A stretch of 64,000 bases of DNA from an uncultured delta proteobacterium (GTDB lineage Bacteria; Desulfobacterota; Binatia; UBA9968). The notes under the pieces were generated by a model. The model had not been told where the DNA came from, ran no database searches, and saw only the letters and a list, made by a program, of their open reading frames with translations. The stretch covers positions 1 through 64,000 of the forward strand of contig CAVSHR010000008.1 in assembly GCA_963727625.1 (NCBI GenBank), read 5' to 3'. Position 1 is the stretch's first letter, and the number at the start of each line of letters is the position of its first letter. Positions 5,251-12,294 of this stretch are shown piece after piece. Made by a program: the position numbers and the translations under genes.

Positions 5251-6246
5251 TCAAATTTTCAAGTCTTTAAAATCTTCGATGACCTGAAAATCTTGCTGGA
5301 CGGTGTCGAGACGTTCGCCGATTTGTTCAATCCGCTCGGCGGCAAGATTGCCCATGAACTCGCCGGCTTTGGCGAGGTACTTGATCTTTTCCGGGTCGAT
5401 TCTCATCACTCGCGCCGCACTGGCGTCAACGGCGACCAGATCATCACCGAAAATCAACACGCCACTCTGTTTGGATTTGCCCTGCAGCGGTCCGTTGCCT
5501 TCCATACCGACGATACCGTCGACAATGGCGAACTGCGGCAGCGGCAGCGAGCTGTTGATGTCCAAAATGCTCTCGTTGATCCCCTTCCAGTGAAGTATAT
5601 TTTTCGGCCAGCCGTAGACGGTCCCTGGGATCACGCCGAACATGTTTTTCAAAGACAGGGTGACGCCGACCCAATGGTGGGTCTTCAGTTTTGGCATGGA
5701 GACGAGCAGGTCGGCGTTGTACAGAGTTTGTGGCAAATACAATTTGCCAAAGCTGGTAAAGTTGCTGCGCAACGGCGTGGCTCGGACGTCGTCGGAGTTT
5801 AGATCGATGTAGCGAATCCTATGGTCTTTGACGACTTGATATAAGCCCGATGCCGATAAGAGATACTCGTTGTCGCGGCGATGCCCCGGGCCTTCGGCGA
5901 CAATGACTTCAGCGGCCCCCAGGGTGCGGAATGAATCGATGGCCGCCTCGACGACGGCAGGGTTGGTATTGATCACGCCGTTGGGATCGAATTCCACCAG
6001 GTTAGGCTTTAAGACGATTCTCTTGCCCTTAACCTCCAGGCCGACCATGTGAATGCCCCTTACGATGATATCTCGGAGAGGCTGATCATAGCTTTTCGCG
6101 GCCAAAACCGCGACGCGAGAGCGGTTCTTTTTGCGAAAAGCCTGGGGCTGCCAGCGCACCGACTGTTCGCAACCCGCAACAACCGGGCTAAGCGAACCGA
6201 GCGCGGCACATTTTAGAAAATCCCGGCGATAAAGCATGCTCGTCAA
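5251..6246 (-). CDS. DUF362 domain protein with Tat-like (RRDFLK) lipoprotein signal
   Basis: IVLKPNLV, MPKLKTHHWVGVTLSLKNMFG and DGIVGMEGNGP motifs. N-terminus reads RRDFLK...VAGC. Confidence 0.88.
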   Translation of the reverse strand: MTSMLYRRDFLKCAALGSLSPVVAGCEQSVRWQPQAFRKKNRSRVAVLAAKSYDQPLRDIIVRGIHMVGLEVKGKRIVLKPNLVEFDPNGVINTNPAVVEAAIDSFRTLGAAEVIVAEGPGHRRDNEYLLSASGLYQVVKDHRIRYIDLNSDDVRATPLRSNFTSFGKLYLPQTLYNADLLVSMPKLKTHHWVGVTLSLKNMFGVIPGTVYGWPKNILHWKGINESILDINSSLPLPQFAIVDGIVGMEGNGPLQGKSKQSGVLIFGDDLVAVDASAARVMRIDPEKIKYLAKAGEFMGNLAAERIEQIGERLDTVQQDFQVIEDFKDLKI

Positions 6247-7142
6247 ATCCGCAATGGCGCGGCGTTGCCGCTTAGCGCCAATAGCGCCAGCGCCAAAGTT
6301 TTGGTTTCGCCCAAAAAACCGTTTTTGGAAAAACGCTTTTCAATAAGCGGTTTCCAGTCGGTGCTTTCCTGGCCGTAGAGATTAAGACAGATCGTGCCCC
6401 AGCAGAGAGCCAAGCCCGAATTCACTTCCTTGGCCATTTGGCGTAAGCGCTGCAAACTTTGTTGATTCGCCGGCTCCGCAGCGCGATCTTGCAAAGCGAT
6501 CAGCGCCACGGCGGTGATGTCAGGGTAAGGCCAGATCGCATAGTCCATTACTTTGGAATTGCCGTAATTCCAGCCACCTCCCATGCACATGCGATCGTAG
6601 ATCATCTCTTCGCCCTGATGGATTCGCTCCTTTACATTCGTCTCGTCGAGCCCGGCCCCGACCTTTTTGAGCGCGATGAGCGCATAGCTGGTCGGTTCGA
6701 CCCAACTAAACGAGTCAGGCACCCAGGACCAGCCGATGAGGTCTCTGTTTAGATTGCCGTTGGATTTTCCGGTCACCCACAGAATAAGTTCCGCCAAAAT
6801 TCCGGGTTTGCTGCCTTCCTGTCGCAACAGCCAGCGGGCGGCGCGGAGCGCGGCTGAGCGATGCTGCGAAAATTCGCCGAGCGCTAATATCGCCAAGGCA
6901 GTGGACCAGGAGCCCTCTTTGGTGACGTCATTTAGCGGCCAACTACCGTCCTGATTTTGATGCTCGGTGAGCCAACCGGCACCGCGCATAGCGCTTTGGT
7001 TCGCCGCGGGGTCGTCAACCGAGTTGAGCCCGGCAATAGCCAAGGAAGTCGCTTCGGTATTGCTGTGTCTGTCATGGGTTGCGCCCCAGCCGCCGTCGGG
7101 ATTCTGAAGCTTTGTGAGATTTTTTAAGACTTGCTCTATCAT
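6243..7142 (-). CDS. Prenyltransferase/squalene oxidase repeat (alpha-alpha barrel) protein
   Basis: QNPDGGWG, QNQDGSWP and GGGWNYGN repeats. Overlaps the DUF362 start. Confidence 0.8.
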   Translation of the reverse strand: MIEQVLKNLTKLQNPDGGWGATHDRHSNTEATSLAIAGLNSVDDPAANQSAMRGAGWLTEHQNQDGSWPLNDVTKEGSWSTALAILALGEFSQHRSAALRAARWLLRQEGSKPGILAELILWVTGKSNGNLNRDLIGWSWVPDSFSWVEPTSYALIALKKVGAGLDETNVKERIHQGEEMIYDRMCMGGGWNYGNSKVMDYAIWPYPDITAVALIALQDRAAEPANQQSLQRLRQMAKEVNSGLALCWGTICLNLYGQESTDWKPLIEKRFSKNGFLGETKTLALALLALSGNAAPLRI

Positions 7143-7343: not shown

Positions 7344-8090
7344 TTATAAATAATGCAGCCGCACCCGGCCGCTGCGCAATTTAAGTTCGGCCTCCCTGAT
7401 CCGTTCCGCAGTGCCGAGATCCTGCCAAAAACCGTCGAAGCAAAAGCCAAAAAGAGCTTCGCCATTGATCAACATCCGCGGGTAAGTGTGTTTCGTCGTA
7501 CTGAATTTTTCCTTCGCGCCTATGCAGTCCATGTATTCGAAAATTTTTGGCTCGAGAATCTGCACTCCGGTAAACATCAACTTGCGCGTCGCGCCGGCCG
7601 GCTCAACGGGCGCCCTGCTGTCGAGAAAGCGGTAGAGCCGGCCGCGCCCGTCGATGTCCATGGAGCCATAGTCGTCGGCGCGCGCGTCGGGGCGTAAAAC
7701 CAGCGTCGCTGCAGCACTCGATTTGCAGTGGAAGTCGATAAGCTCGGCCAGGTTCAAGTCGATGAGGGCATCGGTATTGATGACGACGAACGTGCCGTCT
7801 TGCAAAAATGATTTGGCTTTGAGCAGACCGCCGCCGGTATCCAGCAGTTGGGGCTCCCGGGAATAGGTGATCTTAAGGCCGAAGGTCTCGCCGTCGCCCA
7901 AGCGTTTTTCGATCTGCGCGCCAAAGTGATGTAGGTTGATCATAATTTCGCCGATACCGTAATGGCGCAGCAGCAAAAGCGCGTACTCGATCATCGGTCG
8001 CCCGGCAACCGGCACCAGGGCCTTGGGGATGCTTTCGGTTGTCGGCCGCAGGCGCGTACCCTGGCCCGCGGCGAACACCATGGCTTTCAT
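7344..8090 (-). CDS. murU: Nucleotidyltransferase, MurU-like (MurNAc-1-P uridylyltransferase)
   Basis: KAMVFAAGQGTRLRPTT..PKALVPVAG, LLDTGGGL and FWQDLGT motifs. Coupled to an amgK-like gene. Confidence 0.75.
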   Translation of the reverse strand: MKAMVFAAGQGTRLRPTTESIPKALVPVAGRPMIEYALLLLRHYGIGEIMINLHHFGAQIEKRLGDGETFGLKITYSREPQLLDTGGGLLKAKSFLQDGTFVVINTDALIDLNLAELIDFHCKSSAAATLVLRPDARADDYGSMDIDGRGRLYRFLDSRAPVEPAGATRKLMFTGVQILEPKIFEYMDCIGAKEKFSTTKHTYPRMLINGEALFGFCFDGFWQDLGTAERIREAELKLRSGRVRLHYL

Positions 8091-9163
8091 CGCATCGCCT
8101 CGAAATGCTCGAGCAGCGGCGGCAGAATCGCTTTGGTTTGCGGCAGTTTTGCGAGATTACGTTCGAGGCGTCGTACTGTCGGTGGGACAAATTGCATATA
8201 ACCTGGTCGATTTTTGACCCGATTGAGATAATAAAAGCGGCCGACGACTTTGAAATCCCGCTGAATCGCCGATAGGCGATAGATCTCGAAAAATTTCTCC
8301 TCAGCGATCGCTTGCCCGGTCATCGCGCGTCGCTGGTTCATATAATACCCAACAAGCTCTTCTTCGATCTCCGACCGGATCACGCTATCGGTGATGCGGT
8401 CATTGAGCAGCGAAGCCAAGTCGTATTGCAGCGGCGCCAGCAACGCGTCTTGGAAATCGATGACGCGCACCGCTTCGTTGTGGATCATCAAATTCCAGCT
8501 ATGGTAATCGCGATGACTCAAACAGGAGGTCTGGCGATCCAAAATCGCCGCGATCGCGCCGAAGGTTTCTCTTAAGGTATCGAGAAGCGGCGCGGCGACC
8601 TTAGCGCCCGGGCGCTTTTCCAATCCCCACTCGATAAAATGTTCAAACTCCCAAAGATAAAGCTTTAGATCGAAACGTTGCTGGAAAGCGATGCAGGATG
8701 GGTCGCGCTTCGCCGTGCCGCGGATTTGAAGGTTCAATAGCTCATCGATGGCTTTCTTGTACCAGACGAGGACCTGGTCGTCTGATAATCCCTGGACTTG
8801 GTCCCAAAGCACGGTATCACCGAGATCTTCGAGCAAGAGGAGGCCTTCGCTCTCCCATTGGCCATAGATTTTCGGGACATTGACGCCGACGCCGCTGAGA
8901 AAGCGATGTATGTTCAAAAACGGCAGTTCTTTCGGCGCTCGTTTGAAGATCGCCAGCTCTTCGCTGGAAAGCGACAGGGAGCTGCTGCCTGCGGGCAGCT
9001 CCATGACGATCAAGGACGCTGGAATCCCGCCGCTCAACTGGGCGCGGTAATAACGGCGGCTCGAAGCATCGCCAGCCAGTGCGGTGAGGGTTATCAGTTT
9101 CTGATCAGCGCCGAAAACCAGCCGTATCTTTTCAGCAATTCGCGGTTCTATCGAAAAGGTCAC
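8087..9163 (-). CDS. amgK: APH-family sugar kinase, AmgK-like anomeric MurNAc/GlcNAc kinase
   Basis: LAGDASSRRYYR, LLLEDLGD, HRDYHSWNLM and IDFQDA motifs. Confidence 0.8.
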   Translation of the reverse strand: MTFSIEPRIAEKIRLVFGADQKLITLTALAGDASSRRYYRAQLSGGIPASLIVMELPAGSSSLSLSSEELAIFKRAPKELPFLNIHRFLSGVGVNVPKIYGQWESEGLLLLEDLGDTVLWDQVQGLSDDQVLVWYKKAIDELLNLQIRGTAKRDPSCIAFQQRFDLKLYLWEFEHFIEWGLEKRPGAKVAAPLLDTLRETFGAIAAILDRQTSCLSHRDYHSWNLMIHNEAVRVIDFQDALLAPLQYDLASLLNDRITDSVIRSEIEEELVGYYMNQRRAMTGQAIAEEKFFEIYRLSAIQRDFKVVGRFYYLNRVKNRPGYMQFVPPTVRRLERNLAKLPQTKAILPPLLEHFEAMR

Positions 9164-9211
9164 GGAACAGCCTGAATCTTCGTGTTGGCGGGCATGAATC
9201 GAAATCGGGAG

Positions 9212-9226
9212 GCCGACACCGCCGGC
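9212..9226 (-). promoter_or_regulatory. Candidate SECIS hairpin for second UGA (lies past the stop codon)
   Basis: GCCGGC-GGT-GTCGGC hairpin. The loop begins with G, 18 nt after the UGA. Confidence 0.55.
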
Positions 9227-9229
9227 GCG

Positions 9230-9454
9230 CTACACTTCTCACGAGCCGCCGAAGCCGATGGTGACTTTGCCGGCTTCAACGATGACCGGGACTTGATGGC
9301 GGCCGTTCGAAAACCTGAGCATGCGCGCGAGGCCTTGCTCATCCTCAAGGACATTGATGTACTCATAAGGGATCTTACGGCGAGCGAAAGCCTCACGGGC
9401 GCTCGCGGTGTAGGGTCAGAGGTCTTTGCCAAATATGATAACTTGGTCATCCAT
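9230..9454 (-). CDS. Glutaredoxin-like selenoprotein with two Sec (UXX-star type), 74 aa
   Basis: Hand translation with UGA=Sec: MDDQVIIFGKDLUPYTASAREAFARRKIPYEYINVLEDEQGLARMLRFSNGRHQVPVIVEAGKVTIGFGGSUEV*. TGA at 9418-9416 occupies the Grx CPY position and TGA at 9241-9239 is third from the end. cis-Pro motif VP and a C-terminal GG are present. Confidence 0.85.
9380..9406 (-). promoter_or_regulatory. Candidate SECIS hairpin for first UGA
   Basis: GCGAGCG (9406-9400) pairs perfectly with CGCTCGC (9386-9380), starting 9 nt after the UGA. Confidence 0.5.
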
Positions 9455-9505
9455 GATCGTTTAGCTGCAGCCGAATCTAGCGCTCGTAACATGAGCTAGT
9501 TAGCA

Positions 9506-9558
9506 AAAATAGGCGCGCAGGGATTAAATTGCAAGTCAGCTAACCCCTATGTTACTTT
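9506..9558. promoter_or_regulatory. Putative divergent sigma-70 promoters sharing palindromic TTGCAA
   Basis: TTGCAA at 9529-9534. Minus strand: TTGCAA-17 nt-TATTTT. Plus strand: TTGCAA followed by TGnTACTTT. Confidence 0.35.
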
Positions 9559-9599
9559 CGTAAGAATTTACGGCATCGTTTTGTAACGGAGACTTACGC

Positions 9600-10526
9600 G
9601 TGTCGATCCGCATTGCCATCGCCCAAATTAACCCGAAGCTCGGCGACCTTCGGGCCAATCTCGACCTTTACGAGGAAAACCTCCAACGGGCGGCTACCGA
9701 GGCCGCGGACTTTTTGCTTTTGCCGGAATTGAGTCTTACCGGTTATTTTCTGCGCGACACGGTTCCAAGCGTGGCGCTGACCATGAAATCGGCAGAAATC
9801 ACCAAACTCAAAGCGCTCAGCCGTAAGTTGCCGTTTGTCGCCGGCTTCGTCGAAGAAAGTGCGGATCACCGATTTTTCAATTCGGCAGTCTATTTCGAAG
9901 GCGGCGAAGTTCGTCATATCCATCGCAAAGTCTATCTGCCGACCTATGGCATGTTCGACGAGCAGCGCTATTTTGCCCGCGGCGACCGCGTGCGTGCTTT
10001 TGACTCGAAGTTCGGCCGCTTGGTGCTGCTGATCTGCGAGGATCTCTGGCACCCGTCGACGATTTATCTGGCCGCCCTGGACGGCGCCCTTGCAGTCGTC
10101 TGCCCTTCGGCGAGTCCGCTGCGCGGCATCGTCGACGGTCAAAACCAGGACGACAACGCACGCTATTGGGAGATGATCAACCGGGCCTACGCGGAGACCT
10201 ACAGTCTGTTCATGATTTACGGCAACCGCTGCGGCTTCGAAGACGGCGTCGGTTTTTGGGGTGGCTCGGAGATCGTCGATCCGTTTGGCCAACGTATCGC
10301 CAAGGCCAAGTACTATGACGAGGATTTTGTCGTGGCGGAAATCTCGTTGGAATCGGTACGGCGCAAACGAACCATGTCCCCGCTGCTGCGCGACGAAGAC
10401 ATCGATCTGACGATCAATGAATTGATGCGCATCCGCGAGCGGCCGGCAGCACCGGCAAAAGTCGTCCAAAAGCTCAAAGCTTCAAAAGTTCAAAGGATCA
10501 AAGCACCGAAAAAAGTCAAGCGCTAG
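9600..10526 (+). CDS. Carbon-nitrogen hydrolase (nitrilase family), probable glutaminase subunit of NAD synthetase
   Basis: E-K-C triad motifs [22 protein letters not shown] and ICEDLW. Directly upstream of nadE. Confidence 0.88.
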
Positions 10527-10543
10527 CTTGCCCTTTGCGCGTC

Positions 10544-11365
10544 ATGATTCGAATTCCCACCAACACTGCATTGCTGCGTGAGATCCTCGTCGCGTTTATC
10601 GGTAACGAAGTGCGCAAAACCGGCCTGTCGCGCATCGTCGTTGGTCTATCCGGCGGCGTGGACTCGGCGCTCAGCGCGCTGCTGGCGGCCCAGGCACTTG
10701 GCCCCAAAAACGTGCTGGGTATCCTCATGCCCTACAAGAGCTCCAATACCGACAGCCAGGCCCACGCCGAAATGGTCGTGCAAAGAACCGGCATCGAATC
10801 GCTTTTGATCAGCATCACGGAGCAAATCGACGTCTATTTCGAACGTTTCCCCGACGCCGACCCGCGCCGGCGCGGCAACAAAATGGCGCGGGAGCGCATG
10901 ACGATTCTTTACGATCACTCGGCGCGTTGGAACGCGCTGGTGGTCGGTACCAGCAACAAGACTGAATTGCTGCTCGGCTATGGCACGCTGCATGGGGACA
11001 TGGCTTCGGCGATCAATCCGCTGGGCGATCTCTATAAAACTCAGGTGTGGGCGCTGGCGGAAGCGGTCGGCGTGCCTGCGATAATCGTCGGCAAGGAGCC
11101 GTCGGCGGATCTTTGGGTGGGCCAGACCGACGAAGGCGAGTTGGGTTTTACCTACCGCGAGGTCGATCAGCTGCTCTATCTAATGGTTGATCAGCGTTAC
11201 ACCAAGCCCGAGCTCATCGCCGCCGGTTTCCCCGAGCGGTTCGTCGACGACGTGGCGCAGCGGATTATGAATTCGCAATTCAAGCGGCGACTGCCGGTGA
11301 TCGCCAAAGTCTCACAACGGACCATCGACCGCGACTTCCGCTACTCGCGGGACTGGGGGAAGTGA
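10544..11365 (+). CDS. nadE: NAD+ synthetase
   Basis: [24 protein letters not shown] and PSADLW motifs. Confidence 0.95.
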
Positions 11366-11371
11366 AGCTAA

Positions 11372-11448
11372 AGGACTGAGTAACGAGGACTGAGGACTCA
11401 GGCAGAAAAAACTCGGCTCTCAGCACTCAGTCCTTAGCACTCGGTACT
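11372..11448. repeat. Inverted heptamer tandem repeats (imperfect hairpin)
   Basis: Left arm AGGACTG AGTAACG AGGACTG AGGACTC; right arm CTCGGCT CTCAGCA CTCAGTC CTTAGCA CTCGGTA. Confidence 0.65.
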
Positions 11449-11454
11449 GTCAGG

Positions 11455-12294
11455 ATGGCTGGAACCCTTTACATCGTCGCCACGCCTATCGGCAACCTCG
11501 AAGATATCACGCTGCGCGCGCTGCGGATTTTAAAAGAAGTTGATCTGATCGCCGCCGAAGACACCCGGCACACGCGCCACCTGCTCAGTCACTACGGCAT
11601 TACCACGCCGATCACGAGCTATCACGACCATAACGAGCGTACCAAAGCTCAAGCGCTGGTCGAACGGCTTGGGCGCGGCGAGCGCGTCGCCCTGGTTTCG
11701 GACGCCGGCACGCCGGCAATTTCCGATCCGGGCTATCGCCTGGTGGTCGCTGCGGTGGCTGCGGGAATTCCGGTCACGCCGATTCCCGGCCCGTCGGCGG
11801 TGGCCGCGGTCCTAAGCGCCAGCGGTCTGCCATCGGACCGCTTCGTCTTCGAAGGGTTCTTGCCCGGCGCCAAGCAAGAGCGGCGCAAGCGCTTGCTGGC
11901 GCTGCGCGACGAGCCGCGCACGCTGGTTTTCTATGAGGCGCCGCACAGGCTCACTGAATGTTTGCGCGATATTCTCGGAACTCTCGGCGCGCGCGAAATG
12001 GTGCTGGCGCGAGAAGTGACCAAACTGTATGAAGAGTTTCGCCGCGGGTCGGTTAACGAGCTCCTGGCCGGGCTCGACGTTGATGCGCTGCGCGGCGAAA
12101 TTACTCTTCTCGTCAAGGGATTTTCCGGCGACGTGACGATCACGGAACACCGATTGAAAGAGCAGATCCGCCGGCTAAAGAGCGAAGGCATGCATGTCAA
12201 AGCAATCGCCGAGGTCTTGGGCGAACGCTACGGTTACCCCAAGAAAGCGATCTATCGCCTGACCCTTGAGCTCGACGAGGACGCTAGCTTTTGA
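11455..12294 (+). CDS. rsmI: 16S rRNA (cytidine1402-2'-O)-methyltransferase
   Basis: GTLYIVATPIGNLEDIT, AAEDTR, VSDAGTPAISDPG and YEAPHR motifs. Confidence 0.96.
   Translation: MAGTLYIVATPIGNLEDITLRALRILKEVDLIAAEDTRHTRHLLSHYGITTPITSYHDHNERTKAQALVERLGRGERVALVSDAGTPAISDPGYRLVVAAVAAGIPVTPIPGPSAVAAVLSASGLPSDRFVFEGFLPGAKQERRKRLLALRDEPRTLVFYEAPHRLTECLRDILGTLGAREMVLAREVTKLYEEFRRGSVNELLAGLDVDALRGEITLLVKGFSGDVTITEHRLKEQIRRLKSEGMHVKAIAEVLGERYGYPKKAIYRLTLELDEDASF

Follow-up and report, generated by a model that had tools for sequence, protein, structure and literature searches.

An unannotated UXX-star family 1 gene with two probable selenocysteine codons in a glutaredoxin-like frame of a Binatia genome

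A short frame on the minus strand of contig CAVSHR010000008.1, from an uncultured delta proteobacterium (Desulfobacterota, Binatia), is with very little doubt a genuine unannotated gene of the selenoprotein family NF041114. Both of its in-frame UGA codons appear to be decoded as selenocysteine (Sec) by the SelA, SelB, SelD and tRNA-Sec of the same genome, each UGA with its own hairpin. Because the family is already curated (NF041114 and its parent NF041212) and published, the gene is a correct catch rather than a discovery. Regarding mechanism, we lean by a small measure towards a self-contained redox carrier, in which Sec72 and residue 13 form a reversible Se-Se couple, or a Se-S couple in relatives with Cys13. 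Identity and mechanism taken together, we consider this the best explanation and on balance a probable one.

The window, meaning the whole analysed stretch of 64,000 nucleotides, contains the following features of the gene, with hairpin nucleotides counted from the U of the respective UGA:

9230..9454, minus strand: coding sequence of the predicted glutaredoxin-fold selenoprotein, 74 residues, including the TAG stop at 9232-9230
9416..9418, minus strand: UGA codon 13, predicted Sec at the catalytic position of U-P-Y-T, a Sec/Cys column in homologues
9239..9241, minus strand: UGA codon 72, predicted Sec two codons ahead of the stop (U-E-V-stop), TGA in 83/83 distinct homologues
9380..9406, minus strand: candidate SECIS 1 within the coding sequence, in which nt 13-19 would pair with nt 33-39 (UGA13 numbering) as the lower stem beneath an apical CC-GUGA-GG that holds G23 and U24
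9212..9226, minus strand: predicted hairpin of SECIS 2, located in the 3' UTR; the arms 9226-9221 and 9217-9212 include one G-U pair, and GGU forms the loop (nt 22-24, UGA72 numbering)

The frame opens with ATG at 9454-9452 and runs for 74 codons, and the translation of 9454..9230 (minus strand) reads MDDQVIIFGKDL-U-PYT...GFGGS-U-EV*. The first-pass annotation had proposed a hidden gene skipped by the ORF track, and the frame, both TGAs, the TAG and the translation are all as it claimed. The U-x-x-stop terminus that it described is likewise present, as TGA-GAA-GTG-TAG at 9241-9230, and the same layout is found in all 83 distinct homologues. The table-11 ORF list lacks the frame altogether. Only two listed frames overlap it, 9160-9492 on the minus strand and 9182-9499 on the plus strand, both out of frame, and a Pfam scan of the former returned no match.

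Membership in a defined but functionally uncharacterised UXX-star family, as the first-pass annotation had it, is borne out by profile searches. Against NCBIfam NF041114 'UXX-star selenoprotein family 1', whose cut-off is 72, the read-through protein reaches 111.9 bits, with residues 5-74 aligned full-length on profile positions 1-70 of 70, and 92.2 bits against the parent model NF041212, 'Uxx-star family glutaredoxin-like (seleno)protein' (cut-off 66). A six-frame search of the window's genome with NF041114 gave 97.3 bits. The protein shares with the family the U-x-x-T active site, the U-x-x-stop end and the two Sec; no difference was found, and it is an ordinary member, 55-93% identical to others. 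Some database homologues are already named 'UXX-star (seleno)protein family 1' by NCBI. A 2026 review (PMC13188914) lists the family as 'Distant Grx-like protein 1' with motif UxxT and 2 Sec, describes nearly all such predicted selenoproteins as functionally uncharacterised, and names Haft and Tolstoy 2025 as the source of related UXX-star families. A full-text literature search for 'UXX-star' returned nothing beyond this review. The main text of Zhang and Gladyshev 2008 contains 'Grx-like' entries and lacks the wording 'distant Grx'.

The fold is glutaredoxin-like, as previously claimed. Pfam Glutaredoxin matches the read-through protein at 44.8 bits, and the AlphaFold model of the window protein, built with 29 homologues, has a mean pLDDT of 93.1 and a beta-alpha-beta-alpha-beta-beta core. 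Foldseek places the model with small glutaredoxins, BC3987, cGrx1 and NrdH (TM 0.7-0.78, rmsd 1.3-2.3 A, 64-70 columns). The chains 3ic4, BC3987 (3zij/3zit), cGrx1 (7c10) and NrdH (1h75) have this fold in common with the model at TM 0.71-0.78, but they are only 22-26% identical, carry C-x-x-C and have neither Sec nor a U-x-x end. By sequence, the solved chain that best matches the window protein is the Grx domain of thioredoxin glutathione reductase (E 1e-05). Translation, family and fold comparisons agree in placing the first Sec at the catalytic Cys position of glutaredoxins, within U-P-Y-T. More specific models score below their cut-offs: the TIGR glutaredoxin models reach 34-37 bits, far under cut-offs of 88-90, and the NrdH-redoxin models TIGR02194 and NF007657 reach 28.6 bits against 85.75 and 15.4 bits against 131, respectively. 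Alignment and DSSP show that features of classical dithiol glutaredoxins are absent, with Thr16 in place of CysB and no helix past the GG motif.

The genome is equipped for Sec decoding. The first-pass annotation had named the Sec machinery as a check, and selA, selB, selD and tRNA-Sec were all found above curated cut-offs on contig C5 of the window's genome (G000). The three sel genes lie head to tail at G000:C5:715112-719466, outside the window, and tRNA-Sec (76.7 bits) lies about 50 kb away on the same contig (G000 C5:768830-768920). TGA is otherwise an ordinary stop: five of seven neighbouring Pfam-supported genes end at TGA, and TGA closes 16 of the window's 37 open frames with 300 codons or more. 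General reassignment of TGA is therefore excluded. On the sequence evidence, both TGAs of the 74-codon gene are almost certainly Sec codons. The same genome holds further in-frame TGAs. Its selD carries one (...AAGUAAKLGP...). Two glutaredoxin-like frames outside the window, both below the Uxx_star cut-off, have one at the active site: a small frame at G000:C5:185674-185862 (minus strand) with U-G-P-C, and one at G000:C6:281940-282107 (minus strand) with U-S-S-C, N-terminal in a longer protein (open frame of 276 aa). These two probably belong to other selenoprotein families.

Homologues are numerous. In six-frame searches with NF041114, 52 of 61 related genomes, counting that of the window, had a match exceeding the cut-off (50 of 59 when the unpublished G005 and G035 are left out); the matched stretch holds two TGAs in 40 of the 52 genomes and one in 12. 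The scan of species-representative genomes yielded 361 confirmed NF041114 stretches, the best 80 of which were kept. MAGs of Candidatus Binatia and 'Deltaproteobacteria' contribute most of these best 80 of 361 loci, and the remainder include Acidobacteriota, Methylomirabilota, Syntrophobacter and an anammox MAG. Pooled with 29 relatives (the unpublished locus L041 dropped), they give 109 loci with 83 distinct DNA sequences. T16, P56, G70 and residue 72 (C/U) are invariant in the alignment of homologues.

TGA at the same two positions across dozens of species, at 55-93% protein identity and with no other disruption, speaks against a decayed glutaredoxin gene with two nonsense mutations or a chance frame, as does the Sec machinery in the genome. 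Such a reading could point to the two in-frame stops under table 11 and to the 46 nt upstream of the ATG, where no obvious Shine-Dalgarno-like motif was seen by eye. We give it next to no credence, and the comparative data effectively refute it.

The two UGA columns behave differently. Codon 13 is TGA in 75 of the 109 loci and Cys (TGC or TGT) in the other 34. A column that switches between Sec and Cys is the classical mark of a Sec site. At codon 72, all 109 loci have TGA. Alternation at both sites had been named as a check in the earlier annotation; it is seen at position 13 and not at position 72. As Sec72 is never replaced by Cys, the usual argument from Cys/Sec pairs is lacking at that site, where Sec is supported instead by conserved downstream codons and by a predicted, covarying SECIS hairpin. 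Past UGA72, exactly two sense codons precede a stop in 83 of 83 distinct homologues. Codon 73 is conserved, mostly as Glu. Codon 74 is GTC in 37 sequences, GTT in 25, GTG in 15 and GTA in five, hence Val in 82 of 83, with a single Ile (ATC). The synonymous variation of this conserved downstream Val codon shows that translation runs on beyond UGA72. In 21 of the 83 distinct homologues (e.g., L034, L055, L076, L083, L086 and L088), the true stop after U-x-V is also TGA, so that two UGAs stand nine bases apart. Among predicted proteins, nine were considered from 366 matches below the E-value threshold (120 listed). Six of the nine stop at ...GFGGS. The remaining three, two of them 74 aa long and one 88 aa, have W at both TGA positions and were therefore called with a code in which TGA is Trp. 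None of the nine is a Cys72 form.

The hairpin behind UGA72 begins 10-19 nt past this codon, beyond the stop codon. Each of the 82 evaluable distinct sequences forms 4 bp or more, and 46 versions of the 5' arm occur among them. The loop starts with GG in 70 of 82, and its first base falls at nt 20-22 in 72 of 82. Under a strict criterion (at least 5 bp, a GG-start loop and loop start at nt 20-22), 62 of 82 sequences qualify compared to 12 of 4100 dinucleotide shuffles. An alignment of 28 sequences has 97.1% of cells paired against 81.6% after shuffling, and none of 500 shuffles reached the observed value. Three of five hairpin pairs show compensatory changes in this alignment, and slid registers drop to 14-74%. 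Folding the window sequence alone after UGA72 gave z +1.25, the MFE picking another structure than the conserved hairpin. The position of the GGU loop presumably coincides with that of G23/U24 in the E. coli fdhF element. Judged by conservation and covariation, a SECIS hairpin clearly lies at the right distance behind UGA72. An Rfam scan of 8500-10200 with E up to 10 gave four weak unrelated matches and no SECIS family for either hairpin.

These observations bear on whether UGA72 might be a plain stop, with a single-Sec protein ending at ...GFGGS and a hairpin serving as transcription terminator. Gene callers do stop Cys13 homologues at UGA72 (71-73 aa proteins), Cys never occurs at position 72, and the hairpin lies immediately past the gene. 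We still regard a plain stop as very improbable. The two sense codons and stop are universal past the TGA, with Val at codon 74 written by four synonymous codons, and the hairpin keeps a GG-start loop at a fixed distance with no U run in the window. The second TGA that acts as the real stop nine bases on in 21 of 83 sequences would be meaningless if the first ended translation, and the curated NF041114 profile, matched over all of its positions, covers the U-x-x end.

The candidate hairpin after UGA13 lies within codons, and its signal is of another kind. The window MFE after UGA13 is -14.8 kcal/mol (z -1.75), which is not significant since 12 of 200 shuffles fold as well. Mean folding-energy z at this site is -0.30 for UGA13 forms versus -0.29 for Cys13 forms. 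RNAalifold on 19 UGA13 forms found only two invariant pairs; invariant pairs are few and covariation uncountable here because the lower stem shifts register between sequences. Wobble positions were compared between distinct UGA13 and Cys13 forms, the counts coming from related sequences and hence not representing independent events:

Wobble nt 21 is C: 59/59 UGA13 forms, 15/24 Cys13 forms
Wobble nt 24 is G or T: 59/59 UGA13 forms, 18/24 Cys13 forms
Wobble nt 27 is G: 59/59 UGA13 forms, 17/24 Cys13 forms
Motif GCCCGKGAGG: 49/59 UGA13 forms, 4/24 Cys13 forms

Wobble nt 12, 18, 30, 36 and 39 are free to vary in UGA13 forms. The pattern is as predicted for a constraint at the RNA level tied to UGA decoding, and comparison of the two forms supports such a constraint.

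The proposed mechanism draws on two AlphaFold models, made for the window protein and for a Cys13 homologue, 61% identical, from another genus. Residue 13 stands at the onset of helix 14-25, the position of the glutaredoxin nucleophile, and Thr16 stands where the second Cys of CPYC would be. No helix follows strand 63-66 in either model. The DSSP strings are identical, including two-residue bridges at 54-55 and at 72-73, and pLDDT of the tail block is 93 in the window protein and 90 in the Cys13 homologue. Since the four regular strands are already paired on their reachable edges, 54-55 and 72-73 most likely pair with each other, and the tail at 72-73 would then bridge to 54-55 beside the presumed cis-proline Pro56. 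The stretch ahead of the cis-proline is where the substrate cysteine is held in enzymes of the thioredoxin fold. The predicted docking is consistent with contact of residues 13 and 72, in models where Cys stood in for Sec at both sites and where AlphaFold may favour disulfide-like geometry.

Under the carrier mechanism that we favour, residue 13 would occupy the N-terminus of helix 1, in the place of the glutaredoxin nucleophilic Cys. The tail G-G-S-U-E-V-COOH, with no classical C-terminal helix, would fold back on the stretch before Pro56 and bring Sec72 beside Sec13. The diselenide between Sec72 and Sec13 (a selenenylsulfide in Cys13 relatives) would open and close, handing two electrons to a substrate, and an external reductase would then re-reduce the pair. 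The first-pass annotation had proposed a diselenide centre in which the C-terminal Sec replaces the missing resolving Cys. On the models, a diselenide of Sec13 and Sec72 is plausible. As about 30% of homologues have Cys13, the redox pair would often be Se-S rather than Se-Se. The common denominator of the family, as far as alignments can tell, is the Sec72-X13 couple, either Se-Se or Se-S. Since Sec72 never varies and residue 13 switches between Sec and Cys, the essential reactive atom is probably that of the tail Sec, which looks indispensable and more than a simple substitute for a resolving Cys. More tentatively, the S-U-E-V-COOH tail may act as a tethered selenium stand-in for glutathione or a substrate Cys, bridged to Gln54-Val55 in the substrate groove, with Sec72 as nucleophile and residue 13 as the resolving partner.

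Possible reductants are encoded in the genome, where thioredoxin reductase, gshB and a plant-type gshA (glutamate-cysteine ligase) all score above cut-offs; E. coli-type gshA was not found in this 98% complete genome. The potential of a diselenide would be very low, so that it is uncertain whether ordinary systems could re-reduce it. A tail that replaces glutathione because the organism lacks it was ruled out by the presence of gshB and plant-type gshA.

Known redox systems provide partial parallels. Thioredoxin reductase carries a mobile C-terminal Sec tail, and in thioredoxin glutathione reductase one subunit provides such a C-terminal tail for a Grx domain. The likeness to the window protein is a Sec in the penultimate region of a short flexible C-terminal tail. 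The tail of thioredoxin glutathione reductase is part of a large flavoenzyme and acts on a domain of its own, whereas the window protein joins tail and Grx fold in one chain of 74 residues. SelL, said to have been described by Shchedrina et al. in 2007, is reportedly a eukaryotic selenoprotein with a UxxU motif and a proposed Sec-Sec diselenide in a thioredoxin-like fold. Both Sec of SelL lie in that one motif, whereas 59 residues separate those of the window protein, which only folding would bring together. Closer to the glutaredoxins proper, PMC3866529 reports that yeast Grx5 and Chlamydomonas Grx3 form a CysA-CysC disulfide that GSH reduces poorly, with CysC just past GG as a recycling residue. 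The equivalent Cys of poplar GrxS12 is given as 9.6 A off, with no such bond. Yeast Grx5 and Chlamydomonas Grx3 resemble the window protein in having a single active-site nucleophile, no second Cys of C-x-x-C and a further redox residue past GG (PMC3866529). Judging from the model, the window protein differs in that this residue is Sec and stands two positions past GG instead of one and three residues from the C-terminus, and in that it lacks the C-terminal helix.

The tail could alternatively work between molecules, with Sec72 attacking a partner protein or a second subunit in the manner of thioredoxin reductase and residue 13 acting separately. The closest solved chain by sequence, the Grx domain of thioredoxin glutathione reductase, fits such a role, and so do poplar GrxC1 and GrxC2, which according to PMC3866529 form covalent dimers through an extra C-terminal Cys. 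We find an intermolecular role quite improbable, since the four residues past GG give little reach and both models dock the tail with high confidence on the surface of its own chain.

The genomic neighbourhood was compared across loci. Downstream of the gene on the same strand, at window positions 7344-9163 (minus strand), lie two Pfam-assigned genes that overlap by 4 nt, one for a 358-aa kinase of the APH family and one for a 248-aa nucleotidyl transferase. We presume that this pair resembles the AmgK/MurU pair of cell-wall sugar recycling. Locus L090 carries the kinase and nucleotidyl transferase domains in one 477-aa frame. Divergently, at 9600-12294 (plus strand), a CN_hydrolase ORF (308 aa) is followed after an 8 nt gap by an NAD synthase ORF (276 aa) and then by a TP_methylase-family gene (279 aa). 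The first two look like a glutamine-dependent NAD synthetase split in two genes, and the layout of all three is kept in many relatives. Further downstream, at 5251-7142 (minus strand), lie genes for a 331-aa DUF362 protein and for a protein of 299 aa that has weak matches to squalene-hopene-cyclase repeats; a SQHop-like ORF is near the gene in 8 of the best 80 of 361 loci.

Counts over these best 80 of 361 loci show an APH-type kinase and nucleotidyl transferase downstream in 56, with the gene divergent from TP_methylase in 51 and from NAD synthase in 37; a ZIP transporter (17) and a Cu/Zn superoxide dismutase (13) are nearby in a minority. In Acidobacteriota, Methylomirabilota and a second Binatia genus, the synteny with APH-type kinase, nucleotidyl transferase, TP_methylase and NAD synthase is gone, and isochorismatase-Dabb, LolA-like, Thy1, Memo-like and aspartate-semialdehyde dehydrogenase genes lie beside the gene. 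Among the loci compared, no partner gene recurs across lineages and synteny is kept within one lineage only. The neighbours are housekeeping genes, with no mer or ars genes among them. Housekeeping neighbours that vary by lineage, with no mer or ars, fit a general carrier.

The neighbourhood also weighs on a metal-binding role, in which the selenolates of Sec13 and Sec72 would be the ligands of an Fe-S cluster or of a soft metal or metalloid (Hg, As, Cu, Cd), making the protein a carrier or chaperone and not an oxidoreductase. Some glutaredoxins bind [2Fe-2S], such as the Foldseek matches poplar GrxC1 holo and human Grx2 dimer, and the predicted docking of the tail at the active site would also suit a chelate with two ligands. 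The idea that the UXX-star Sec may bind metals is credited to Haft and co-workers in PMC13188914. Genes for metal resistance or transport, though, do not recur beside the gene, and we consider such a metal-binding role unlikely.

UXX-star family 1 is widespread, with 361 matching stretches in a single scan of species-representative genomes. Standard gene callers skip or shorten its genes, and naming this one correctly adds one selenoprotein to the genome. Homologues ending in U-x-V-UGA, in which the first UGA would be Sec and the second a stop, offer a natural test of how strict hairpin distance is in SelB-dependent decoding. The comparison adds three points: the invariance of Sec72 against a residue 13 that is Sec or Cys, the predicted docking of the tail beside Pro56, and the absence of any functional neighbour conserved from lineage to lineage. 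These points sharpen the hypothesis of an intramolecular Se-Se or Se-S couple without making the finding new. If Sec72 is indeed the nucleophile, the protein would be the smallest known self-contained two-selenium redox module, and its gene would provide a natural case of a bacterial SECIS acting wholly from the 3' UTR.
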